Virus record (IMG/VR): IMGVR_UViG_2609459864_000003
Coordinates: 1 to 9,527 of that record
Direction: 5' to 3' (one strand)
Source: a virus
Taxonomy: Duplodnaviria; Heunggongvirae; Uroviricota; Caudoviricetes
Length of the DNA: 9,527 nt
In this document: positions 1 through 9,527 of the stretch, piece by piece
Layout: every line of letters starts with the position of its first letter
Numbering within the stretch: the first letter of the stretch is position 1
Position numbers and translations under genes: made by a program
Notes under the pieces: generated by a model
Seen by the model: the letters and a program-made list of their open reading frames with translations, nothing else
What the model was told of the DNA's origin: nothing
Databases searched by the model: none

Positions 1-224
1 ATGGTCCCGGCATGTGAAGGCGGAAAACCTTCAACCAGCAGGGTGACGCTGTACTGACCATGCTCAACATCCATGCTGTAACGTCCGGCTTCATCCGGAT
101 TTTCAGAGGCCACCGTGTTCACCACCACCGTGCTGCTGGTTCGTCTGGCCTTCAGCACAATGGTGCAGTTCTGTACTGGTTTTCCTGTGCCATCTTTAAG
201 CACGCCAGAAATTTTTACTGTCAT
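1..224 (-). CDS. stf: side tail fibre protein Stf, N-terminal fragment (gene continues beyond window start)
   Basis: Minus-strand ATG at 222-224 opens a frame still open at base 1. Translation MTVKISGVLKDGTGKPVQNCTIVLKARRTSSTVVVNTVASENPDEAGRYSMDVEHGQYSVTLLVEGFPPSHAGT matches my recollection of the lambda Stf (orf-401) N-terminus (MAVKISGVLKDGTGKPVQNCTIQLKA...). It sits directly downstream of lom, as in lambda. Absent from the ORF track because there is no stop inside the window. Confidence 0.7.
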   Translation of the reverse strand, partial: MTVKISGVLKDGTGKPVQNCTIVLKARRTSSTVVVNTVASENPDEAGRYSMDVEHGQYSVTLLVEGFPPSHAGT

Positions 225-238
225 ACTTTTCCACCAAT

Positions 239-270
239 AAAAAAAGCCCGCAGCAGTGACGCCACGGGCT
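239..270 (-). terminator. intrinsic terminator downstream of lom
   Basis: Inverted repeat agcccg (245-250) / cgggct (265-270) with a 14-nt loop. On the minus strand the hairpin is followed by a U7 run (plus-strand A-run 239-245). Lies between the lom stop (376) and the stf start (224). Confidence 0.5.
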
Positions 271-375
271 TCAGGACAGTGTAACTTTACGTTTCCTCAA
301 ACGCAGTTCACCCCATAAGGTGGATGAACCTGCGTATCATAACAATATTTACAGAAGATAAATCGGCGTCTGTTG

Positions 376-975
376 TCAGAAACGGTATCCGATACCAACA
401 ATAAATGCATCCGTTCGCCAGTCGCCACTACCGGAACCTTCATAAGCAAGGTCAATGGTCACGGATTCGGTCGGGTTAAACTGCACGCCAGCCCCCCATG
501 CCAGAGACGTGTTGCTGTGGCGACCGTCATCACTTCCGGTCAGCACATCGTGCGTTTTCCCCTTGTTGTCAGTTACGCGGAGATAATCCCCGGAGAAAGT
601 CGACACACGGCTGTAAGCCATACCCGCCATCGCATACGCGCTGAACCATTCATTCACGCGCACAGACGGCCCCGCCATCACGCTGAACCAGCGGTTACGC
701 ACGGAATCTTCATGCCAGCGGGTATCGCTGTAGTGCGTTTTTTGCTCATCCTCAGCATTGGCATAACTGAAGGACGTAATCAGCCCCAGCGCGTCCGTAA
801 ACTCATAACGGTATTTCACGTTAATCCCGTTCAGATTATCGCTGCCGGGAGCGTTCGTACGGGCATGAAGATACCCCGCGCTCAGTGTGGACTGATGTTC
901 AGACGCCCATGCAGGCGCACCGGATACGGCCAGACAGATGGCTGCGGACAAAATGGCTGCACAAACTTTACGCAT
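376..975 (-). CDS. lom: Lom outer-membrane protein (Ail/Lom/PagC family)
   Basis: 199-aa ORF; MRKVCAAILSAAICLAVSGAPAWASEHQSTLSAGYLHA... is near-identical over its length to lambda Lom as I recall it. Has an N-terminal signal peptide and C-terminal aromatic residue typical of beta-barrel outer-membrane proteins. SD gagagg lies upstream of the ATG at 973-975. Lies immediately downstream of J, as in lambda. Confidence 0.93.
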   Translation of the reverse strand: MRKVCAAILSAAICLAVSGAPAWASEHQSTLSAGYLHARTNAPGSDNLNGINVKYRYEFTDALGLITSFSYANAEDEQKTHYSDTRWHEDSVRNRWFSVMAGPSVRVNEWFSAYAMAGMAYSRVSTFSGDYLRVTDNKGKTHDVLTGSDDGRHSNTSLAWGAGVQFNPTESVTIDLAYEGSGSGDWRTDAFIVGIGYRF

Positions 976-996
976 AATTACCTCTCGCTTTTCTGC

Positions 997-1023
997 AATA
1001 AAAAAGGCGCCATTTCTGGCGCC
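997..1023 (-). terminator. intrinsic terminator between J and lom
   Basis: Perfect 7-bp stem ggcgcca (1006-1012) / tggcgcc (1017-1023) with a 4-nt loop that reads GAAA on the minus strand, followed on the minus strand by UUUUUUAUU (plus A-run 997-1005). Starts about 20 nt after the J stop codon. Confidence 0.65.
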
Positions 1024-1042
1024 CGTATATGGGTTATAAAAT

Positions 1043-4000
1043 TCAGCTGATACTGATGCCTGCGGTGGCTTTCTTCATCACCACAACCAGCAAATCGCTG
1101 ATACTTGCTGTGGGATACCAGTTATTCACCAGCCATGCTGACACCGAAAACTCCAGTGTCATGTGACCGTGACCGGCAGGCATATCAATAACACCACTGT
1201 AAATCAGCGTATTATCCAGCGCGGTACGGTTATAAATTTCAGCACCGTTTTTCCGCACTATCAGACGGCATGAGGAGTAAATATCAGTATGCTCTTTCTC
1301 ATGTTTAGCGCCGCTGAATGCCACCGCCGGAATAACAATCTGCCGGTCAAACGGCTGATCGTCATAAACCCTGACGGTAATGGTCCCTGATGGCCACCGC
1401 TCCGGTGCACGGGAGTCCCGGGGGAAAGCTTTGCCCACTGTTTTAACGAGATCGCCTTCAATCTGGTTGGCGGACAGTTTTCCCAGAACCCGACAGTTTT
1501 CGTTAATCGTGACGTTGTTGAGCGTCCCGGAGTTCGCATTCACGTTACCGCTGATATCGGCATTTTTCGCCGTCAGCCGCCCGTCCGGTGTCAGGGAAAA
1601 TGCCGGAGGATTACCGCCGCTGGTAATGGTGGGAGCCGTCAGGTATTTCAGGAACACTTCGTTCATGAATATCTGATCGCCCTGACCAACAAACATCGGC
1701 TTTGTGTTGCCATTCGCAGGATTAATCATCGCAATCCGGTCAGCAGCCAGAAGCACCTGACTCTGCATACCTGCTGGCGTATTCTCAATACCGGCTCCGA
1801 TACCCGCAATATAAAGGCGTCCGTCCTTCATCTGCTGCAGTTTCACGGCCCACATGCTGTTCAGGTTATTATTTGTATCAACCTGAACTTTCTGTATCTG
1901 CTGGATTGCCGCACTCTGATTTTCCAGTTTTTTATTGACGGTCTGCGTGATTTCATTGCTGACATTCGTAATGGACGTCCTGATTTCAGCCAGATCAGGC
2001 GCAAGCTGACCGTTATCAATCTGTGTCCACAACTCCTGAGCCAGATGGGTTTTCCCTATCTCTCCTTTGAAAAAATCCAGATAGCCGGATGCATCATCAC
2101 TCGGCTGGCCAACAGCCTCCACAAATGCCGATTTGCCAACAGTATTCACACTGCGGATATAAAAATAATAATCATGGCCCGGTTTGATATTGATACTGGC
2201 AGCTATCCAGTACAGCGCCGAGCCAAGATAGCGGGCTGCGGTTTCAACCTGCCTGATATCCGCAATCCGCTTTTCCGAGAACCAGAACTCAAACTGTACC
2301 GTCGGGTCATAAACGGCAAGATGCGGCGTGGCGGGTATCTGAAAATAGCCCGGCGTCAGCTCAATCCGCGACGGTGCTGCCGGTGCGGCAATCCGGAAGG
2401 TGGTGGTGGCAGGTTCACCCTGCTGGCCATAGCTGTTTATCGCCCGCACCGTCAGGGTGTATTCCCCGAGCGGCAGGCCGCTGAAACGGTGCTCCGTGTC
2501 TGCGGTGATGGCGGTGGTCACCAGTCTGGCATCCGTTCCCTTACCACTGGTCAGGCGCAGACTGAAGCGCACACCCTTCACCACCCGCGGCGTGTCCCAT
2601 TTCGCCTGCGCCAGATACTGGCCGTCAGCTGCGCTCACCTCCACCGTCAGGTGCTGCACTGCCGGTGGGATGACGCTGTTCAGGGAACCTGACTGCGGCT
2701 CAAAGCGGGCACCGTTATCCACGATGGCTTCTTTTTCCGGTACGTGCTGCACCGCCGTGATGGCAAAGGTGCCGTCCGTGTTTTCCCGGATGGAGACACA
2801 GCGGAACAGGCGACGGCGCAGTGACGGCAGGGAGAGTCCCCACACCCCGTATGTCTCCACACCATCAGGCAGGGTACTGACCTGTATCCGGTCCGGCGCG
2901 GGGTGTTCGGTGATGTCCACACTCACCGGCTTACCGCTGCCGTTAATCAGGTTCACCGTGGCGGCACCGGTCTCCGGAAGTGTCACTTCACGGTCCAGCG
3001 TCAGGGTGCGGGTGGCAGCATCAATGGACAGGACACGTCCGCCGGTCAGAGTCCCGGCATAGTCGTTATCACAGATTTCAATGATGTCACCGGGTGTGTG
3101 CCGCAGCCCCTGAGACCCGAGCGTGAAATCCACCGTCTGCGTTTCCAGCAGTTCGGTCTTTATCACCCACAGTCCGGCACGGTGGGCCTGACCGCGGCTG
3201 GTACAGCCGAACGCGTCCATCTTCAGCAGGTTGCGTCCGTAGCGCAGTATGGCTTCCGGGTCTTCCACCAGTTCCGTGGAGGTCTGCCAGCCGTTCTGCG
3301 GGTCGGTGTAATTCACCTCCACCGCCGTGTGCCGGTCCTTCAGGGCACTGAAGCTGTAGCGGAATCCCACGCCGTTATCATCCACCACCACATCGCTGTT
3401 GGTGTACGGCCACACCACATCCGACGGGCGGTCCTGAACGAACGTCAGCGTCTGACCGTTCCATACCGGCATACAGCGCATCGCAGAGCAGAAATCACTG
3501 AGAACGTCCCACGCCTTACGCTGTTGTGCCAGGTACGCATTAAAGGTCATCCGCGGCTCTGTCCCCCCGAAACCATCCGGGACCGTCTGGTCGCAGTACT
3601 GCCCGATGGCATACAGCGCCCACTTGTCCACATCCGCCGCCCCCAGACGTTTTCCCATGCCGTAGCGCGGGTGAGTCAGCATGTCCCACAGGCACCAGGC
3701 CGGGTTGTTGCTGTATGCCGGTTTCAGACTGCCGTCCCAGATACCACTGTACGTGCGTTTTTCCGGGTCATAGTTTGACGGCACCTGGATGATGCGACCG
3801 CGGATATGGTAGTTCACCGTCATCTGCTGGCCGCCGAACTGCTCCGCATCCACCTGCAGCCCCACAATGGCCGTGTTCGGGTAATCGAGGCTGAGGGCTT
3901 TCTTAATCTCGTATCCGTGTCTGCGGTAGCACTGAATTAGCCACTCGGCCTGTTCTTCAGTGCATGGGGGATGCTGGAACCAGTCAGATTTGAAAGTGCG

Positions 4001-4072
4001 GGAACGCCGCCCGTGCCTGCTGGCAGGGGCGGCAGAGTTATCCGAATTGTAAAATTTGGTATCGTGCGCCAT
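1043..4072 (-). CDS. J: tail-tip host specificity protein J, N-terminally truncated fragment
   Basis: The track ORF 1043..4201 aligns by eye with lambda J from about ORF residue 107 ([20 protein letters not shown]... versus lambda KQCYPNTALVGVQVDSEQFGSQQ...) through the C-terminus, including the conserved [13 protein letters not shown] and [30 protein letters not shown] blocks. The first ~106 residues do not resemble J. The hok terminator lies at 4141-4170, so I place the plausible start at the internal ATG 4070-4072 ([10 protein letters not shown]...). Roughly 200 N-terminal residues of a full-length J and all upstream tail genes are absent. Confidence 0.85.
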
Positions 4073-4140
4073 CTGTTTTCTCTGCTGGCGCAGCAGGTGC
4101 CAGTTGTTCAGGCTGACGGATGGATTGTAAACCAGAACGA

Positions 4141-4170
4141 CCAGAAAAAACAAAACCCGCCGAAGCGGGT
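4141..4170 (-). terminator. hok mRNA intrinsic terminator
   Basis: Stem aacccgc (4153-4159) / gcgggtt (4164-4170) with a 4-nt loop, followed on the minus strand by UUUUGUUUUUUCUGG (plus 4141-4152). Lies about 70 nt downstream of the hok stop. Confidence 0.6.
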
Positions 4171-4239
4171 TAAGTGCGGGTGCGTTGAGGATGCCTGACA
4201 CATCAGCGGTGGCGAGGGATTTCTCCCCCGCCGGGTCTC

Positions 4240-4395
4240 TTACTCCTCAGGTTCGTAAGCTGTGAAGACAGCGACCTCCGTCTGGCCGGTTCGGATTCGT
4301 ACCTCGCAGAGGTCTTTCCTCGTTACCAGTGCCGTCACTATGACGGTTAAACAGATGACGATCAGGGCGATTAACATCGCCTTTTGCTGCTTCAT
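4240..4395 (-). CDS. hok: Hok/Gef family type I toxin (51 aa; HokD/RelF-like or HokC/Gef-like)
   Basis: My own translation of the minus strand gives [51 protein letters not shown]: a single transmembrane helix plus the conserved RKDLCE and VAVF(T/M)AYE motifs of Hok/Gef proteins. SD ggaga lies upstream of the ATG at 4393-4395. Below the 60-aa cutoff of the ORF track. Confidence 0.93.
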
Positions 4396-4451
4396 AGCCT
4401 GCTTCTCCTTGACCTTTCGGTCCGTAAGAGGCTAATCTCTATGTGTCGCAT
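4392..4451 (-). CDS. mok: mok-like leader ORF (19 codons) translationally coupled to hok
   Basis: Minus-strand ATG at 4449-4451 opens [19 protein letters not shown]; its stop TGA overlaps the hok ATG (AUGA). The position matches the mok reading frame of plasmid R1 hok/sok, though it is much shorter here. Confidence 0.4.
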   Translation of the reverse strand: MRHIEISLLRTERSRRSRL

Positions 4452-4510
4452 AGATATGGCCTCAGATTAATGTTAAGCGTCTTGCAGGACGCGTAATGTT
4501 AACTGGGGCT
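4440..4510 (+). ncRNA. sok: putative Sok-like antisense RNA; ends approximate
   Basis: Plus-strand promoter-like hexamers TTGACC (4409-4414) and TAATCT (4433-4438) with an 18-bp spacer, pointing opposite to hok. The transcript would be antisense to the mok start region of the hok leader, as in known hok/sok loci. A hairpin gcgtct-tgca-ggacgc sits at 4478-4493. Exact 5' and 3' ends cannot be fixed from sequence. Confidence 0.35.
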
Positions 4511-4570
4511 TTTCTCTATCTGCCTTTTGGTGTTCATGCCTGAGACAGATAGCCTCAAGCACCCGCAGTC

Positions 4571-4599
4571 ATTCTACTTAACTAAGATTTCCCCGCAAA
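4571..4599 (-). promoter_or_regulatory. putative hok promoter
   Basis: Read on the minus strand: -35 TTTGCG (plus 4594-4599), 17-nt spacer, -10 TAGAAT (plus 4571-4576). It sits just upstream of the gcttgaggct 5' motif that aligns with the 5' end of R1 hok mRNA as I recall it. Confidence 0.4.
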
Positions 4600-4653
4600 C
4601 CGTTTTTGTCCGGCACAGTAAATATCCAACTAAACCAATGGCGTTCGCTGTAT

Positions 4654-4833
4654 TTACCGCCAGTATTCAATGCACATGACCGCCATGAACACCCCTAAAA
4701 AAAGGGCATTTATATATCCAAATATTAATATCAAAACATCAACTTTTTCCATATACCTTGCTGTGAAGATGATGGGCATACATGATACGAACAACCAGAA
4801 CGCAACAAACAAAAACTGCAATGCGTTTTTCAT
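4654..4833 (-). CDS. hypothetical small membrane protein (59 aa, two predicted hydrophobic helices)
   Basis: Internal ATG (4831-4833) of track ORF 4654..4872 is preceded by a strong SD aggagg. Product MKNALQFLFVAFWLFVSCMPIIFTARYMEKVDVLILIFGYINALFLGVFMAVMCIEYWR is dominated by two hydrophobic segments. Lies in a markedly AT-rich stretch (about 4680-4980). Confidence 0.5.
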   Translation of the reverse strand: MKNALQFLFVAFWLFVSCMPIIFTARYMEKVDVLILIFGYINALFLGVFMAVMCIEYWR

Positions 4834-5062
4834 TATTCCTCCTACAATCAATGTGCAATTACATTTAAACACACCTCAATTTGGCCGGACATATAAATAT
4901 CTAAACCAGAAAAAATCACTTACATAGCGTTACAAACTCTTTAGTCTAAATATTCATCGTAAAACATTCCCCATACTTATCAGCCCGTTCTGCGCCAGGT
5001 AGCTCATTGCCTTATCTGGGAATCTGTAATCAGGTTTCCGGATGCTGGTGGATTTTCGCGTT

Positions 5063-5320
5063 TTAGTTGTTCATAAAAGTGCACAGCTTTAACCAGTTCT
5101 TCTGATGTAACCGGGACTGGCGGGGCAGTGAATAAGGCCTGAATTTCATAGTTCGGCCTGTCGTTACAATCCTCTTTTTTCGGTACATATTTCCAGTCAC
5201 CAGACCACTACTTCCCCTGAAAGTCCGTAACGCCTTTTTTTTCACGTAGCGATATCGCCATGCCACTGTTTTTGCTTGCCCCGCCGTTTCATGCCCTTCC
5301 TGATAATTAACCTCGCTCAT
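5063..5320 (-). CDS. hypothetical ORF with Ea22-like start (MSEVNYQ...), possibly a frameshifted pseudogene
   Basis: ATG 5318-5320 overlaps the stop of the upstream 58-aa ORF (ATGA). The first codons agcgaggttaattatcag resemble the ea22-like start at 8185 (agcgaaattaattaccag). After homopolymer runs (A8 on the coding strand = plus T-run 5227-5234; A6 = plus 5171-5176) the product becomes an implausible K/R-rich string, while another frame carries a more protein-like open stretch ending at 5004. Confidence 0.3.
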   Translation of the reverse strand: MSEVNYQEGHETAGQAKTVAWRYRYVKKKALRTFRGSSGLVTGNMYRKKRIVTTGRTMKFRPYSLPRQSRLHQKNWLKLCTFMNN

Positions 5321-5493
5321 TCATCGCCCCACTCATCACAATATGCTTCGACCGGAGTTTTTCCTGCTTCATAATCATCACGCCATGCTTCAGCATCAGC
5401 AGCACTGCCACCACGTAACTCTGCATAGTCCATTAACAGTTCATGCCATGCTTCAAAACTGACGTTGTATTTAGTTGAACCAAAATCAGCCAT
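5317..5493 (-). CDS. hypothetical small acidic protein (58 aa)
   Basis: Not in the track (below 60 aa). ATG 5491-5493 overlaps the stop of the upstream ORF (ATGGCTGA). Translation MADFGSTKYNVSFEAWHELLMDYAELRGGSAADAEAWRDDYEAGKTPVEAYCDEWGDE. The stop overlaps the next start. Confidence 0.5.
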   Translation of the reverse strand: MADFGSTKYNVSFEAWHELLMDYAELRGGSAADAEAWRDDYEAGKTPVEAYCDEWGDE

Positions 5494-5668
5494 TTTGCTC
5501 TTCCTCTTCGTCTTTTATTTCGTGATATGAGTAATTGCAGTAGTTAAAGAAAATATCTTTTGCTTCGTCATGTATTTCATCAGGCGTCGCATCATCATCC
5601 ACTTCGAATTCATCCTCGAAATCTCCACCGGCTATTCCCGTTTCAATAATTATTTTAAACTTTCGCAT
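5486..5668 (-). CDS. hypothetical small highly acidic protein (60 aa)
   Basis: Track ORF; MRKFKIIIETGIAGGDFEDEFEVDDDATPDEIHDEAKDIFFNYCNYSYHEIKDEEEEQNG, about 40 percent D/E. An SD AGGAGG is present, but it is separated from the ATG by a GC hairpin (see the regulatory feature at 5676-5697). Confidence 0.55.
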   Translation of the reverse strand: MRKFKIIIETGIAGGDFEDEFEVDDDATPDEIHDEAKDIFFNYCNYSYHEIKDEEEEQNG

Positions 5669-5675
5669 TTAACTA

Positions 5676-5697
5676 CCGCCCTTTCGGGCGGCCTCCT
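5676..5697 (-). promoter_or_regulatory. SD-hairpin-AUG translation initiation structure
   Basis: Minus strand reads AGGAGG (plus 5692-5697), then hairpin ccgccc-GAAA-gggcgg (plus 5676-5691), then uaguuaa, then AUG (plus 5666-5668). Linear SD-to-AUG distance is 23 nt; folding the GNRA hairpin would bring them into normal spacing. Confidence 0.4.
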
Positions 5698-5761
5698 GAT
5701 GTTCTGATGGTGCAGAAATCCCTCCGGTTAAGGATTAAATTTTTAACAGAGCTAAATTTAA

Positions 5762-6118
5762 TTATTCAGTTCTGGATTTTGTCGCCCTGCGTATCCGCGC
5801 TTTCGCGTTACGCTCAATCTGAATTAGCTTTTCTATATTTTTTCGCCTTTCCCGCTCCTCCTGGCGCAAGTGCCTTACATCATCTGCCAGTCTGGTTTCT
5901 CTTTTCGCCACAGAGAGCATCCAGTCAAATGGTTCCACAACTGCACCGCAGATTTTACAGCGGACCTGACGCTCTTTTTCGTCAACCCGGACAGAGGCGT
6001 GATGACAATATGGTCTTTCCGATGGCTCATAAAGAAAATTAACCTGATTACGAGGGTCATCCTCTTTTACCGGAAATAAAACGATATTGCTTAACTCATC
6101 CTCTGGTTTTATTTCCAT
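5762..6118 (-). CDS. hypothetical protein with putative zinc-ribbon (C-HH ... C-x2-C) and basic coiled-coil C-terminus (118 aa)
   Basis: Internal ATG 6116-6118 of track ORF 5762..6175 has SD aaggagagg; the track start at 6175 is a GTG inside the upstream scar. Product MEIKPEDELSNIVLFPVKEDD...PYCHHASVRVDEKERQVRCKICGAVV... followed by an R/K/E-rich tail. Confidence 0.6.
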   Translation of the reverse strand: MEIKPEDELSNIVLFPVKEDDPRNQVNFLYEPSERPYCHHASVRVDEKERQVRCKICGAVVEPFDWMLSVAKRETRLADDVRHLRQEERERRKNIEKLIQIERNAKARIRRATKSRTE

Positions 6119-6239
6119 GCTCCTCTCCTTTGATGCGAATGCCAGCGGTAATTGAAGCCTGATAGCTAATTTCACTCACAGTACCGCCTCCTGAAAATTT
6201 AATGAACAATTCAATACGTTCTTTGGTAATAGTGGTCAT
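6096..6239 (-). pseudogene. deletion scar: chimeric 47-codon ORF built from gene-start and gene-end fragments
   Basis: ATG 6237-6239 with SD aaggag. Product MTTITKERIELFIKFSGGG-TVSEISYQASITAGIRIKGE-EHGNKTRG. Its first codons match the start of the 135-aa gene at 6922 (MITITKG...). An internal aggaggcggtact-GTG-agtgaaattagctatcag copies the RBS and start of the ea22-like gene at 8185, fused directly to a copy of the ea22-like 3' end (AGIRIKGE). Confidence 0.4.
6123..6148. repeat. 26-bp gene-boundary repeat, copy 1 (ctctcctttgatgcgaatgccagcgg)
   Basis: Exact 26-nt identity with 7438-7463. Here it lies inside the scar, read in a different frame relative to the next start codon because of a 1-nt indel just outside the repeat. 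Confidence 0.8.
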
Positions 6240-6249
6240 GTGTTACTCC

Positions 6250-6513
6250 TTAACCCGCAGTGCTTTCAACTGATGAGGGGAACAAAATCTTTTCATCAAA
6301 CCCTGCATTCATATCATGAACAGCAACACACCAATCCATCGACGAACGATTATCAAGAGCCTCCATGATTTCATCCATGCGGCGCAGGTCATACAGGTAA
6401 ATGCTTTTATCGCCAATGGTGTAAAAACCAATTTTTTTCGGTGATGGGCAGCGATCAAGAACGTCCTGTAATTCGTTCAACCATGCCCGTTCTTTTTTTG
6501 TTAAAGTTGCCAT
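6250..6513 (-). CDS. hypothetical protein (87 aa)
   Basis: Internal ATG 6511-6513 of track ORF 6250..6573, preceded by SD aaggagag within the conserved junction gccatatcactctccttt (6509-6526). Product MATLTKKERAWLNELQDVLDRCPSPKKIGFYTIGDKSIYLYDLRRMDEIMEALDNRSSMDWCVAVHDMNAGFDEKILFPSSVESTAG. Confidence 0.6.
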   Translation of the reverse strand: MATLTKKERAWLNELQDVLDRCPSPKKIGFYTIGDKSIYLYDLRRMDEIMEALDNRSSMDWCVAVHDMNAGFDEKILFPSSVESTAG

Positions 6514-6514
6514 A

Positions 6515-6922
6515 TCACTCTCCTTTCCCATGAAGCATAGCGGCGCGGCAGGCGTTCCATATTTCGGCAGCAATATCGCGCTCGCTATCGGTTAATTTGT
6601 ACGTGGAAACATAGCCAGAGAGCATTTCTACGTTTTCCGGAGTTGCTTCTTCCGGCACTATCGGCGCTGGAGGGGCGGCAAATAGATATCCGCCAAAGTC
6701 AGGAAGCTCTCCAATGGCCTGTACGAACTTTTGTTTGCCTACGTCAACTCCTAATGGGTAATGAGCTATAATCTTTGCCACCGGCTCTGCTTCCAGCGAT
6801 ACCAGTGCAATTCGTGCCAGTTCTTCCGCTTCTTCTGCTGGCAGTACAACGTTGCTACCCGGTCCGTATGTTTCGCGCCACTGCTTGATTGTCAGCAGTC
6901 GCCCTTTGGTAATAGTGATCAT
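6515..6922 (-). CDS. hypothetical protein (135 aa)
   Basis: Track ORF; the start ATG overlaps the stop of the upstream nuclease gene (ATGA at 6919-6922); SD aaggaa. No motif I can recognise. Confidence 0.7.
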   Translation of the reverse strand: MITITKGRLLTIKQWRETYGPGSNVVLPAEEAEELARIALVSLEAEPVAKIIAHYPLGVDVGKQKFVQAIGELPDFGGYLFAAPPAPIVPEEATPENVEMLSGYVSTYKLTDSERDIAAEIWNACRAAMLHGKGE

Positions 6923-7434
6923 GCCGCGTTTCCTTCTTTCTTATTAACAATCACACCGTCATATATTTCATTAAGGTGCCCTCTCAACTCCATGCGCCTT
7001 AATGCAGATAACATGTAATCGCATTCAACCTGCTTATTCCCAGTAAATGGCTTATCGTCAGGATTACCCCAACAGCAATTACCCCTGGGCCATCCATGTA
7101 CTTTCCGTACTCTTCCGTTAACAACGTGAAGTAATCCCCAGCCGGGAGGTAAATCCTCAACTGAAATAATTTCCGGCTCACTAATAAAGAATCGCCAGTC
7201 GCCCATGCCAAGTGAGGGATTTTTACGGAAACGCTTTTTTCTATCTGCCAACAAGTCAGCACGAGAACACTTCGCCTCTATCAGGCATGATGCTGAATTT
7301 CTGAATCCCATAGCATCTGGCTGTTCTCCGGTACTGGTTACAGCAACAAAGCGGTCATGAAAGCAAACCTTGAACCCGTTGCGCTTAAGGAACTTGTACG
7401 CAATCTGACAGAGTTCGCGGTGTGTTAACGCCAT
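6919..7434 (-). CDS. putative PD-(D/E)XK-type nuclease (171 aa; VRR-NUC / MmcB-like motif arrangement)
   Basis: Track ORF with SD aaggagag. The product contains ...VAVTSTGEQPDAMGF(x9)CLIEAKCSRADL...: an acidic residue, a PD dipeptide and an E-x-K triad at the spacing typical of restriction-endonuclease-fold nucleases. Family assignment is from motif only. Confidence 0.7.
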   Translation of the reverse strand: MALTHRELCQIAYKFLKRNGFKVCFHDRFVAVTSTGEQPDAMGFRNSASCLIEAKCSRADLLADRKKRFRKNPSLGMGDWRFFISEPEIISVEDLPPGWGLLHVVNGRVRKVHGWPRGNCCWGNPDDKPFTGNKQVECDYMLSALRRMELRGHLNEIYDGVIVNKKEGNAA

Positions 7435-7435
7435 A

Positions 7436-8185
7436 TCACTCTCCTTTGATGCGAATGCCAGCGGCGCGGATTGCAGCGATGACTTCAGAAACTTTGTATG
7501 CCATTACCGTTTGGTAATCATCGTGAAAATCTGTTCGATGAAGCATGCTGCTACGTTCCGGGAGCGATATTTCCCGAGCATCCAGTTCCTTAACGCGTTC
7601 CTCCAGTTCGTAGACCCTGCATTGTTCTCTATCATCAATCAGATATAACCCAAGACATTCGCTTTCTACCCAACCGCCAAAATCATGATCGTAACGCTCA
7701 CATGAAAACTCACCGTCACCGTCCTTTGTTGGAATGGTGTAACTATCTAATGGGCCACCATATGTCGGCACATTCCCCAATGTTGGATGCTCAATCCACA
7801 TGAAAAATGCACGTCCGGTTATTGGGCAAATATCTGGCCGCCATTGGTTACGAACAGCCTTGGTTTCGGATAATTCTTCAGCGTGTTGTTTTACTTCCTC
7901 AAGCTCAACTCTCAGCTTCCCTACCGTTAGCGCAATATCCTCGTTCTCCTGGTCGCGGCGTTTGATGTATTGCTGGTTCCTTTCCCGTTCATCCAGTAGT
8001 GCCAGCACGGTTTCTGGTCCGGTCAGAAATTTGAAGGCATTGAGCGCATCAATATCCACACCGTAATCTTTAAGTTCCTGTTCACTTAACAAATCATCAT
8101 CAGTTGGCAACATTAACAGGCGTTCCATTGCTGGAATTGCACGTTCTGCTGCCTCACGCAGTGCCTGGTAATTAATTTCGCTCAC
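7436..8185 (-). CDS. Ead/Ea22-like family protein (249 aa)
   Basis: GTG start 8183-8185 preceded by a strong SD aaaggagg; the track's longer ORF to 8368 has no better start. N-terminus VSEINYQALREAAERAIPAMERLL...ETVLALLDERERNQQYI... matches the pattern I recall for Ead/Ea22-like prophage proteins. Central coiled-coil, cysteine-rich C-terminal half. Confidence 0.7.
   Translation of the reverse strand: MSEINYQALREAAERAIPAMERLLMLPTDDDLLSEQELKDYGVDIDALNAFKFLTGPETVLALLDERERNQQYIKRRDQENEDIALTVGKLRVELEEVKQHAEELSETKAVRNQWRPDICPITGRAFFMWIEHPTLGNVPTYGGPLDSYTIPTKDGDGEFSCERYDHDFGGWVESECLGLYLIDDREQCRVYELEERVKELDAREISLPERSSMLHRTDFHDDYQTVMAYKVSEVIAAIRAAGIRIKGE
7438..7463. repeat. 26-bp gene-boundary repeat, copy 2
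   Basis: Identical to 6123-6148. Here it encodes the C-terminus AGIRIKGE of the ea22-like protein plus the SD of the downstream nuclease gene. The overlapping 18-mer gccatatcactctccttt (7430-7447) recurs at 6509-6526. Confidence 0.8.
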
Positions 8186-8352
8186 TGGTTGCCTCCTTTG
8201 CGAAGCTCTGCGGCTAAATACTCCAACGCCATTATGTGGCGTGTTCCCCAACCAGGACGGTACGTTCACCGCGATGACGTATACCAAAAGCAAAACGTTT
8301 AAAACCGAAAATGGTGCCCGTCGCTGGCTGGAAAGAAACTCAGGTGAGTGAT

Positions 8353-8481
8353 ATGGATTTCGACACAATCATGGAAAAGGCTTACGAAGAATACTTCGAT
8401 GGTCTTGCCGAAGGCGAAGAAACTCTCAGCTTCAACGAATTTAAACAGGCGCTTTCCAGTTCGGCAAAATCTAACGGCTGA
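8353..8481 (+). CDS. ydfB: YdfB-like small protein (42 aa) of the dicB operon
   Basis: ATG 8353-8355 with SD aggtga. Product MDFDTIMEKAYEEYFDGLAEGEETLSFNEFKQALSSSAKSNG. Size and position (two genes upstream of DicF and dicB) match ydfB of the E. coli K-12 Qin prophage. Not in the track (below 60 aa); the overlapping track ORFs 8348..8557 (+) and 8299..8496 (-) have implausible composition. Confidence 0.6.
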   Translation: MDFDTIMEKAYEEYFDGLAEGEETLSFNEFKQALSSSAKSNG

Positions 8482-8510
8482 TAAGCGAAACAGCACCGCG
8501 AGGAATCAGT

Positions 8511-8729
8511 ATGCAGAAACGAGAACCCGTCATCATCGCGCCAGACTATACCGATGATGAACTTTATGAGTGGATGCGCCAGAAAATTAATGCAGTGCAG
8601 GATCTGAAATGGGCCAATGAAGCCAGGACTAAGCAGGCTGAAAATCTGTCCGCTCTGGAGCAGGATATCACCAGGCTGGAAAAAGCAGCGGCATTAAGCA
8701 TTGCCAGAATGGTTACATACCCGCGTTAA
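8511..8729 (+). CDS. ydfC: YdfC-like protein (72 aa) of the dicB operon
   Basis: Track ORF with SD gaggaa. 72 aa, the size of K-12 ydfC; it lies immediately upstream of the DicF precursor region. Confidence 0.7.
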   Translation: MQKREPVIIAPDYTDDELYEWMRQKINAVQDLKWANEARTKQAENLSALEQDITRLEKAAALSIARMVTYPR

Positions 8730-9067
8730 TAGCTAACCAACGAAGCTAAGGTTGGTAATTAAGGAGTTCTCCACGGGTCAGGTGGAGTGCGTGCGCCGGA
8801 CACGGGTGAACATCCGGCACTGACAGTTTACTGAAAGGATATGTCCCTGAAAAGTCAGGGCATAAAGCGAAAGCGCACGGCGAAATTGGTCTCTCTGTAC
8901 GGTGTCGTTAAATTTAGTTCGACCGTGCGCTTCCGGTTGTGGCACTCCGCGAAATGGCGCGGCGGTAAGTATGGCGGGGGTATTCCTTCCTCCGTTGAGG
9001 ACACCGGGTTGTCAGGTTGACCATACGCTTAAGTGACAACTCCGCTGCAACGCCCTCTGTTATCAAT

Positions 9068-9120
9068 TTTCTGGTGACGTTTGGCGGTATCAGTTTTACT
9101 CCGTGACTGCTCTGCCGCCC
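9068..9120 (+). ncRNA. dicF: DicF small regulatory RNA (53 nt; ftsZ-targeting sRNA of Qin-type prophages)
   Basis: tttctggtgacgtttggcggtatcagttttactccgtgactgctctgccgccc matches the DicF sequence as I remember it, followed by a T5 run (9121-9125). It is embedded in an ORF-free, hairpin-rich region between ydfC and dicB, exactly as in K-12. Confidence 0.8.
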
Positions 9121-9294
9121 TTTTTAAAGTGAATTTTGTGATGTGGTGAATGCGGCTGAGCGCACGCGGAACAGTTAAAACCAAAAACAGTGTTATGGGT
9201 GGATTCTCTGTATCCGGCGTTAATTGTTAACTGGTTAACGTCACCTGGAGGCACCAGGCACCGCATCACAAAATTCATTGTTGAGGACGCGATA

Positions 9295-9483
9295 ATGGAA
9301 ACGTTATTACCAAACGTTAATACGTCTGAAGGTTGTTTTGATATTGGTGTTCTGCTCAGTAACCGGGAGTTTACGGAAGATGCCATTAAGATGAGAAAAT
9401 ATGAACCTTATCTTCTCAATGATAATTCCATACTTTCCAGAATTGCCCTTCTTGAACTTGGTATTATCGGAGAACAGCAGTGA
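9295..9483 (+). CDS. dicB: DicB-like cell division inhibitor (62 aa)
   Basis: Internal ATG 9295-9297 of track ORF 9190..9483, SD gagga. Product METLLPNVNTSEGCFDIGVLLSNREFTEDAIKMRKYEPYLLNDNSILSRIALLELGIIGEQQ. The 62-aa length and N-terminus match my recollection of K-12 DicB; the C-terminal half appears divergent. Lies downstream of DicF. Confidence 0.8.
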   Translation: METLLPNVNTSEGCFDIGVLLSNREFTEDAIKMRKYEPYLLNDNSILSRIALLELGIIGEQQ

Positions 9484-9527
9484 CTTCAGCATTTGCACTG
9501 GTGATGACCGTTTTTCTTATAACGGGT
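9480..9527 (+). CDS. ydfD: YdfD-like protein, N-terminal fragment (continues beyond window end)
   Basis: GTG 9480-9482 overlaps the dicB stop (GTGA). The frame is open to the window end and encodes a hydrophobic N-terminus VTSAFALVMTVFLITG. Position after dicB matches ydfD of K-12. Confidence 0.4.
   Translation, partial: MTSAFALVMTVFLITG

Follow-up and report, generated by a model that had tools for sequence, protein, structure and literature searches.

What is the origin of the short, nearly identical sequences that recur at several gene boundaries of a single accessory operon, and have genes been exchanged there? The question was raised by a stretch of 9,527 nucleotides from a virus of the Caudoviricetes (IMG/VR record IMGVR_UViG_2609459864_000003, positions 1 to 9,527), which as a whole will be referred to as the window. 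A sequence-only reading of the window had pointed out an exact 26-mer, an exact 18-mer and further related motifs near gene starts, and had proposed that these are linkers for the modular exchange of early-region genes. We consider it likely that the repeats are a short boundary sequence located at the 3' ends of Ea22-family genes, which serves as a recombination linker between unrelated genes. That exchange has taken place at this sequence, designated here as the island, was observed in its conservation, in the unrelated flanks on its two sides, in shuffled combinations of these flanks, in sharp breakpoints and in an actual recombinant.

The window was read over positions 5700-8700 with a repeat search and shuffled controls. 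The 26-mer CTCTCCTTTGATGCGAATGCCAGCGG indeed occurs in two exact copies, at 6123-6148 and 7439-7464, the second of which had been placed one base off (7438-7463). No match to it was obtained in 200 shuffles. Exact copies of the 18-mer GCCATATCACTCTCCTTT were present just where they had been reported, at 6509-6526 and 7430-7447, and none of 200 shuffles contained two or more matches. The copies of the 26-mer are direct repeats 1316 nt apart and those of the 18-mer lie 921 nt apart, on the same strand. Similarity between the copies extends further than had been noticed, with aligned segments of 43 nt at 81% and 40 nt at 78%. The 11-mer GAGTGATATGG is present on the minus strand at 6510-6520 and 7431-7441 (expected count, 0.14), and its recurrence on the plus strand at the start of ydfB was also found, at 8346-8356 and not at 8345-8355. 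A degenerate version, ttcgcaaaggagg, precedes the start of the Ea22-like gene as described (minus strand, 8192-8204, directly upstream of the GTG at 8185). Each repeat had further been said to cover a stop codon, a Shine-Dalgarno (SD) sequence and the next start codon; this is the case for 7430-7464 and 6509-6526, and does not hold for 6123-6148.

The repeats that take part in shuffling all lie in minus-strand genes, at three junctions that we designate A, B and C. Junction A (7430-7469, minus strand) carries the canonical form and comprises the last 10 codons of the Ea22-like gene (RAAGIRIKGE). Its coding strand reads ...CGC GCC GCT GGC ATT CGC ATC AAA GGA GAG TGA T ATG GC, with the SD sequence AAGGAG, the stop codon TGA at 7438-7436 and, after 1 nt, the ATG(GC) of orf171 at 7434. 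Lambda ea22 has the core, GCTGGCATTCGCATCAAAGGAGAGTGA, as its 3' end. At junction B (6509-6548, minus strand) a variant is present, in which the orf135 tail RAAMLHGKGE is followed by AAAGGAGAG-TGA-T-ATGGC leading into orf87; AAGGAG is again the SD sequence, and the stop and start codons are found at 6517-6515 and 6513. Junctions A and B have CCGCGCCGCT and the 18-mer in common, and differ in the 12 nt in between. On other contigs, the tail RAAMLHGKGE was found on four different upstream bodies. Junction C (6116-6150, minus strand) is a third copy, in which the tail TAGIRIKGE and the SD sequence are kept within an open reading frame (ORF) of 47 amino acids. GAG-C takes the place of the canonical TGA-T before the ATG of orf118 (6118-6116), and this ATG lies outside the 26-mer. 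The upstream frame stays open for 8 more codons, until the stop codon at 6098-6096. This stop lies 20 nt beyond the orf118 ATG, so that the two frames overlap. Junctions of this type were seen 50 times in the loci that we fetched, and in one locus (L175) the canonical TGATATG form precedes the same orf118 gene.

Judging from their sequences, a single element underlies the repeats, namely the conserved 3' end of ead/Ea22-family genes. The consensus, CGCGCCGCTGGCATTCGCATC-AAAGGAGAG-TGA-(T/G)-ATG, is about 26-40 bp long, encodes (R)AAGIRIKGE, holds the SD sequence AAGGAG and ends with TGA-n-ATG. In lambda ea22 (NC_001416, 29847-30395), the DNA end is gctggcattcgcatcaaaggagagtga / gacgctggcattcgcatcaaaggagagtga and the protein ends in ...SDAGIRIKGE (...HMMSDAGIRIKGE) before the stop. 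The tail GIRI(K/N)G(G)E closes 108 of the 114 distinct Ea22-like ORFs in the fetched loci. Nearly all sampled members of the family, that of lambda included, have the last 8-10 codons in common, as do non-Ea22 genes, and the core GGCATTCGCATCAAAGGAGAG is almost invariant over 351 occurrences. The element is not a free-standing intergenic linker but the coding 3' end of ea22-family genes. The same core was present in the P1-like phage P7, where the 45-mer corresponding to 7428-7472 is identical at 45/45 positions and lies between upf88.3 and upf89.0 (the orf171 homologue of this locus, L354, is at 2539-3054). The 45-mer is nearly identical in HK633, where it lies between the homologues of HK620p07 and HK620p06, and in further phages. 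We also found the core at the end of eaA in the P22-like Salmonella phage SE16, and in phiV10 and VT1-Sakai.

Concerning the spread of the element, the 18-mer and the 26-mer each occurred on at least 119 contigs of IMG/VR. The 45-mer around junction A was found in 369 of 50,697 phage records (lambda-, HK620-, P22-, phiV10- and P1/P7-like) and in 1668 of 5426 complete E. coli genomes (31%), at up to 6 places per genome and with 201 places on plasmids. Named phages of five genera carry the island. Counting the motifs beyond the locus had been suggested in the sequence-only reading; they are widespread, and they coincide with mosaic breakpoints. When a 24-mer of lambda ea22 was searched against a wider range of genome contigs, 38 hits were obtained (L355-L392), among which only those in Escherichia spp. 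and Shimwellia look genuine. Most of the 38 are on tiny, low-coverage contigs or on contigs of ~48.4-48.5 kb (Streptococcus, Streptomyces, Bacillus, Prevotella, Pseudomonas and others), and these contigs are almost certainly lambda DNA contaminating the assemblies. Campylobacter phage CJLB-4 and Xanthomonas phage vB_XooS_NR08 contain a lambda-type 'Ea22 protein', and their records may contain lambda sequence.

We then examined how the flanks of the island are combined. For every exact 18-mer in the fetched loci, the flanks of 250 nt (150 nt in a second run) were clustered at 80% identity, and a rectangle was scored when all four pairings of two left and two right flanks were present. With the 18-mer, 27-29 upstream and 16 downstream clusters were obtained, which occurred in 58 combinations and formed 72 complete 2x2 rectangles. 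The 26-mer gave 26 rectangles from 9-11 upstream and 22-23 downstream clusters. At four control junctions (ydfA/ydfB with 114 loci, and three other gene boundaries of the window) the number of rectangles was 0. As the flanks are non-homologous, the rectangles cannot have arisen by recurrent origin, and exchange must have occurred at the island. On the upstream side, the bodies of the encoded proteins are unrelated; they comprise Ea22 proteins with many different C-terminal domains and several non-Ea22 proteins of no recognisable family, and at least 20 different genes follow the ATG.

The edges of similarity were sharp. In pairs of loci with a shared upstream and a different downstream flank, similarity stopped exactly after ATGGC in 186 of 212 cases. 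The left edge lay 0-22 nt before the 18-mer, and the two edges define a shared island of 18-40 nt. In BLAST comparisons with 219 loci (alignments of at least 60 nt), the endpoints of high-scoring segment pairs were concentrated at 7420-7470, 6500-6545 and 6140-6215 and were nearly lacking inside gene bodies, with extra hotspots at the edges of a module in orf135 and at 7880-8010. The latter region is a conserved island of ~130 bp in the Ea22 coiled coil (7880-8010, minus strand; LLDERERNQQYIKRRDQENEDIALTVGKLRVELE) and the strongest breakpoint hotspot of the window, with a coverage of 100-109 loci, 84 segment starts at 7880-7900 and 75 ends at 8000-8020. The swappable C-terminal domain of Ea22 lies between this hotspot and the tail linker.

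Further loci were collected with gene-body probes in order to lessen ascertainment bias. Among them, 108 of the 111 loci with orf171 have the linker (...AAAGGAGAGTGAT) in front of this gene, and 24 different upstream bodies precede it there. This gene stands almost always directly behind an Ea22-family gene, whichever C-terminal domain the latter carries, which suggests a functional pairing with Ea22-like proteins. At the upstream junction of orf87, a KGE-type linker was present in 64 of 112 loci and an alternative, TATAAGGAAAACTGAT|ATG, in 45. The alternative junction, ...NKINPYKEN (stop) TATAAGGAAAACTGAT|ATGGC (L289-L317 and others), is unrelated to the linker, with only the layout AAGGA..TGATATGGC in common, and may represent another family of boundary sequences. 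Switching within the island was also seen. Three tail subtypes, RAAGIRIKGE, RAAAAGKGE and RAAVAGKGE, are found on one and the same upstream body (upstream cluster 9), each with its own set of downstream genes; the switch from one subtype to another takes place at the shared CGCGCCGC. In addition, three loci (for example L171) are recombinants, in which the left flank of junction A in the window leads through the 26-mer into the right flank of junction C in the window. A joint of this kind would be the expected product of recombination between the two 26-mers or, equivalently, may represent the state before a 1316-bp insertion.

The rectangles, the breakpoints and the spread support the proposal of linkers for modular exchange of early-region genes at the minus-strand copies, whereas the ydfA/ydfB junction, which had been included in that proposal, proved to be fixed. 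At this junction (8340-8356, plus strand; TCAGGTGAGTGATATGG) the stop of ydfA and the start of ydfB are arranged in a linker-like manner, with an SD sequence, TGA, 1 nt and ATG. A scan with a 20-mer gave 114 usable loci, which fell into a single cluster on either side and formed no rectangles, and ydfA/ydfB was therefore rejected as a shuffling linker. The end of ydfA at 8311-8356 (plus strand; CGTCGCTGGC...17 nt...GAGTGATATGG) resembles the linker at 7430-7469 (minus strand; CGCCGCTGGC...15 nt...GAGTGATATGG) at both edges. The left part of this likeness (CGYCGCTGGC ... GAGTGATATGG) is read in a different frame; a distant relative at the DNA level or chance may be involved, and the likeness is too weak for a claim.

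How might the island act? It provides the next gene with a strong SD sequence 6 nt before the ATG, together with a stop/start arrangement suited to translational coupling. At junctions A and B, the spacing from SD to start is within 5-9 nt (AAGGAG, 6 nt, ATG) and the upstream stop is adjacent to the start (TGA-T-ATG). Being common to unrelated genes in many temperate phages, the island could at the same time offer a patch of homology for recombinases of the Red, RecT or Erf type or for those of the host. We infer that the crossovers were driven by homology within the island; such enzymes and translational coupling would likewise be part of the mechanism. Recombinants would keep the upstream reading frame and the downstream translation signals, and would be functional at once and retained. 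The outcome would be a reshuffling of upstream bodies, in particular of the variable C-terminal domain of Ea22, and of downstream genes. In the window, each of the four copies or variants closes one gene or gene relic: a truncated Ea22 paralogue, an intact Ea22-like gene, the mosaic orf135 and an internally deleted 'mini-ea22'. About 30 bp has been cited as the minimum homology for recombination by Red-beta (PMC3945230). An island of 26-40 bp lies around this value, and at least 26 bp would be consistent with homologous exchange.

Several points weigh against this explanation. The length of 26-40 bp is near the lower limit for efficient recombination, and the first joint of each new gene body to the island was probably non-homologous. 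Illegitimate joints filtered by selection could give equally sharp breakpoints at gene boundaries. In three of the scans, loci were selected by the motif itself, and isolate-derived IMG/VR contigs are highly redundant. Loci can therefore not be counted as independent events, although the combinations of clusters hold up in spite of this. All 29 contexts keep the tail in the reading frame of the upstream gene, and the tail variants by codon position (9/13/21) show a mild excess at the third position, from which some constraint on the tail at the protein level is possible. In an alternative explanation, conservation is functional only: the tail peptide and/or the SD and stop/start signals are needed, joints arise illegitimately and are selected at gene boundaries as in the Hendrix model, and the island is a passenger. 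The near-optimal SD sequence 6 nt from the ATG and the TGA-n-ATG arrangement are in its favour, as are the constant frame and the codon positions. On the other hand, these signals need ~12 specified bases, and not 26-40 identical ones with the same codons. An identical coding tail of 21-26 nt is found on unrelated protein bodies, and independent in-frame illegitimate fusions would hardly recreate it. The switch of tail subtypes at the common CGCGCCGC within one upstream body also speaks against this alternative, as does the retention of the tail in a relic of 27 codons without an Ea22 protein body. Among 42 tail variants, 11 synonymous and 23 non-synonymous distinct codon changes were counted, a ratio that is near neutral in what is a weak test; within the limits of that test, conservation of the tail looks like nucleotide-level identity from recent spread and not like strong selection on the protein. 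Taking these points together, we regard purely functional conservation as unlikely.

The other explanations that we considered fare worse. Strong ribosome-binding and stop-start signals may come to resemble each other by chance or convergence, and the ydfA/ydfB junction, which carries GAGTGATATGG and yet is fixed, indicates that 11-mers can recur without shuffling. However, shuffled sequences never reached the exact 26- and 18-mers, and conservation extends past the functional signals into specific codons that are common to lambda ea22. Chance is refuted for the three minus-strand copies and is a highly improbable account of the repeats as a whole; for the plus-strand 11-mer at ydfA/ydfB it remains the best reading. 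Only slightly more probable, and still very unlikely, is a dedicated cassette system, with the element as a recognition site for a site-specific recombinase or nuclease (attC- or homing-like) or as a structured RNA. The position of the element at the 3' end of each 'cassette', the base-sharp right breakpoint and a superficial likeness to integron arrays would fit such a system. The left boundary, however, varies by 0-22 nt, unlike in site-specific recombination, the annotated contexts have no recombinase gene as a constant neighbour, and the repeat search found no inverted-repeat arms at the copies except to the ydfA junction. The RNA fold of 7410-7500 (minus strand) had a z-score of +1.17, with 183 of 200 shuffles folding at least as well, and Rfam gave no family at the copies, matching only sok (4393-4564) and DicF (9069-9120) in the window; a structured RNA or DNA element was rejected on these grounds. 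Finally, the copies are same-strand direct repeats at the distances given above, as a single recent tandem duplication at this locus would produce. The sequence-only reading had itself named an explanation of this kind, with motifs confined to the locus. What we found is that only ends of 18-43 nt match and that the flanks are unrelated. Identity stops at the edges of the island, and hundreds of phages and prophages carry the motif, in dozens of contexts and several phage genera. The probability of a local duplication is practically negligible.

A bolder version of the linker explanation may also be envisaged. The tail of ea22 could be a shared adaptor that defines mobile gene cassettes across lambda-, P22-, phiV10- and P1-like families; cassettes would be excised as circles and re-inserted at any copy, and mini-ea22 relics would be empty docking sites. 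In the window, the candidate cassettes between direct copies would be orf171-orf135 (921 nt) and the segment from orf171 to the relic (1316 nt). Phage recombinases would free the circles, as for the mini-circles of the promoter-early stem-loop (PeSL) cassettes in T4-type phages. If this were true, the embedded SD sequence and stop-start would secure expression wherever a cassette lands. We consider this version rather doubtful.

The genes around the linkers were mapped from the ORF list and from two close annotated E. coli prophages, those of O104:H4 FDAARGOS_401 and Ecol_316 (L002). All genes between ~4240 and 8185 are on the minus strand. In the reference prophages, the block lies between replication genes (cro-like, YdaT, O-like, DUF977, methyltransferase) and DUF968-RusA-Q, which places it in the rightward early region and not in the early-left operon. 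The Ea22-like gene (7436-8185; 249 amino acids) consists of an N-terminal/coiled-coil Ead_Ea22 domain (Pfam PF13935, E = 3e-29, residues 2-108), a variable C-terminal domain and the conserved tail. Its protein gave piecewise matches to 9 different PHROG families, indicating that it is a mosaic. According to Pfam, the Ead_Ea22 domain is absent from orf135 and the 47-amino-acid ORF, which carry the tail or relics only. Downstream of junction A, orf171 (6919-7434) is a homologue of P7 Upf89.0 and the commonest gene behind the linker. The Prokaryotic Genome Annotation Pipeline (PGAP) marked it as 'frameshifted' in the near-identical loci L001 and L002, and the ORF of 171 codons is intact here. The mosaic orf135 (6515-6922) is composed of a shared N-terminal module (~6788-6922), a variable middle and a linker-type tail; coverage of 65-83 was confined to 6780-6920, with breakpoints at 6760-6800 and 6900-6940, and PGAP annotated only the N-terminal 45 codons in L001 and L002. 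Behind junction B lies orf87 (6250-6513), and behind junction C orf118 (5762-6118), with a weak zinc-ribbon match. Further along are a DUF7167 gene (5668 to 5486), the small ORFs orf58 (5493 to 5317) and orf85 (5320 to 5063), and hokD (4395 to 4240). For the genes neighbouring the linker, Pfam and PHROGs gave unknown functions only.

The ORF of 47 amino acids (6239 to 6096, minus strand, from the ORF list) is built from gene ends. Its 3' two-thirds are the mini-ea22 relic (6096-6179, minus strand) of 27 codons, with an SD sequence AGGAGG at 6192-6187 and a GTG at 6179, in which VSEISYQAS, matching the N terminus of Ea22 (cf. VSEINYQAL... with ...TVSEISYQASITAGIRIKGE), is joined directly to the tail ITAGIRIKGE. 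The relic was present in more than 40 loci behind varied upstream sequences, and no Ea22 protein is made there. Fused in frame to it is a 5' relic of an orf135-family gene (6195-6239, minus strand; MTTITKERIELFIK...). The start of the ORF (MTTITKE...) at 6221-6240 is 95% identical over 20 nt to the start of orf135 at 6904-6923, and the orf135-family members up19 and up27 begin with MTTITKER / MNAITKERIKLFIK. At the other end of the block, at 8182-8234 (minus strand), a second Ea22-like paralogue located further upstream has left ~49 nt of its 3' end. This remnant ends with the degenerate linker ...ELRKGGNQ (stop) (cttcgcaaaggaggcaaccagTGA; coding ...CTT CGC AAA GGA GGC AAC CAG TGA), the stop of which overlaps the GTG start of the Ea22-like gene (GTGA). 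Positions 8100-8234 of the window are 100% identical to 5719-5853 of L002, which cover the end of the Ea22-like gene WP_001586955.1.

This remnant borders a deletion joint at 8234/8235, where the ~49 nt of the paralogue end (minus strand) abut the interior of ydfA (plus strand) with an overlap of 2 nt. Compared with Ecol_316 (L002, 5853 to 9865), ~4 kb has been lost, including two Ea22-like genes, the methyltransferase, DUF977, the O-like gene, YdaT and the cro- and cI-like genes. As a consequence, the prophage lacks its immunity and replication region, and ydfA is truncated at its 5' end. A second deletion joint, at 3881/3882, lies inside an ORF at 1043-4201 (minus strand) that encodes an in-frame hybrid of 1052 amino acids. 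Its N terminus derives from a small hypothetical gene upstream of hokD (homology to L001 and L002 begins at 3882), and the remainder is the gene for the tail-tip protein J (TipJ/host specificity). DUF968, RusA, Q, the lysis genes, the head genes and most tail genes are missing at this joint, which was found in no complete E. coli genome of the collection. The Rfam matches mentioned above correspond to the sok antitoxin RNA (minus strand), beside hokD, and to the small RNA DicF (plus strand), downstream of ydfA-ydfB-ydfC. Both are ordinary content of Qin-type prophages. Just 3' of DicF is a 19-nt inverted repeat (9130-9148 and 9259-9277; 95% complementary) with 110 nt between its arms.

Boundary sequences in lambdoid phages go back to the modular theory (Susskind & Botstein 1978) and the HK620 genome (Clark, Inwood, Cloutier & Dhillon 2001, J Mol Biol 311:657), both as cited in PMC3029335. 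There, too, a short conserved sequence at a gene boundary has non-homologous flanks in different phages and was proposed as a focus of homologous recombination. The element described here is likewise tens of bp long, lies at a gene boundary, has non-homologous and reassorted flanks on both sides, and is found in the HK620-like phage HK633. Unlike the lambdoid examples, it lies within coding sequence, in the C-terminal codons of the ea22 family, and its reassortment has been quantified (72 rectangles against 0). The closest mechanistic counterpart is the PeSL cassettes of T4-type phages (Arbiol et al. 2010, PMC2839356), in which a small repeated expression signal between non-essential genes doubles as homology for gene insertion, deletion and replacement, and small gene cassettes are flanked by direct repeats. 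PeSLs, however, belong to virulent myoviruses and are intergenic signals for transcription (a sigma-70-like promoter with a terminator hairpin), whereas the island is a translation signal in a coding tail of temperate phages, without a hairpin. Mini-circles are a demonstrated feature of PeSLs.

In the ea22 genes of lambda and Shiga toxin phages, a shared N-terminal and coiled-coil region (Ead_Ea22 signature) is combined with unrelated C-terminal domains, which are dissimilar except for a 16-residue segment in two variants (PMC10834534). A term search of the main text of that article gave no mention of a conserved C-terminal tail. The window has a gene of the same family with the same pattern; in contrast to the published mosaics, the last 8-10 codons are common across the family and to non-Ea22 genes. 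On the flanks of mosaics in temperate phages, signs of homologous or homeologous exchange have also been described (Martinsohn et al. 2008, PMC2327257; De Paepe et al. 2014, PMC3945230). Short or diverged homologies beside exchanged segments are again involved, and Rad52-like recombinases have been proposed. Those studies dealt statistically with partial flanks genome-wide, whereas here one near-identical island is re-used across five phage genera. Integron arrays resemble the present one in layout only, in that a conserved element stands at the 3' end of each cassette. There, an integrase recombines the attC sites, which are imperfect inverted repeats, at a fixed position, whereas the island has no hairpin, a variable left boundary and no recombinase in its annotated neighbourhoods.

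The concept of a linker is old; this instance is new and well quantified, and a specialist would not be surprised by it. For annotation, it is a warning that short ORFs such as the 47-amino-acid gene are relics of gene ends, and that the shared tail can produce spurious protein-family links among unrelated proteins. Whether phage mosaicism results from homologous recombination at linkers or from random illegitimate recombination followed by selection has been debated for decades. The usual objection to linkers has been that they cannot be found at most joints. The island represents a concrete and easily assayed linker of 26-40 bp, located in the ea22 gene of lambda itself and between dozens of unrelated genes, and it would account for the many unrelated C-terminal domains among Ea22-family proteins.

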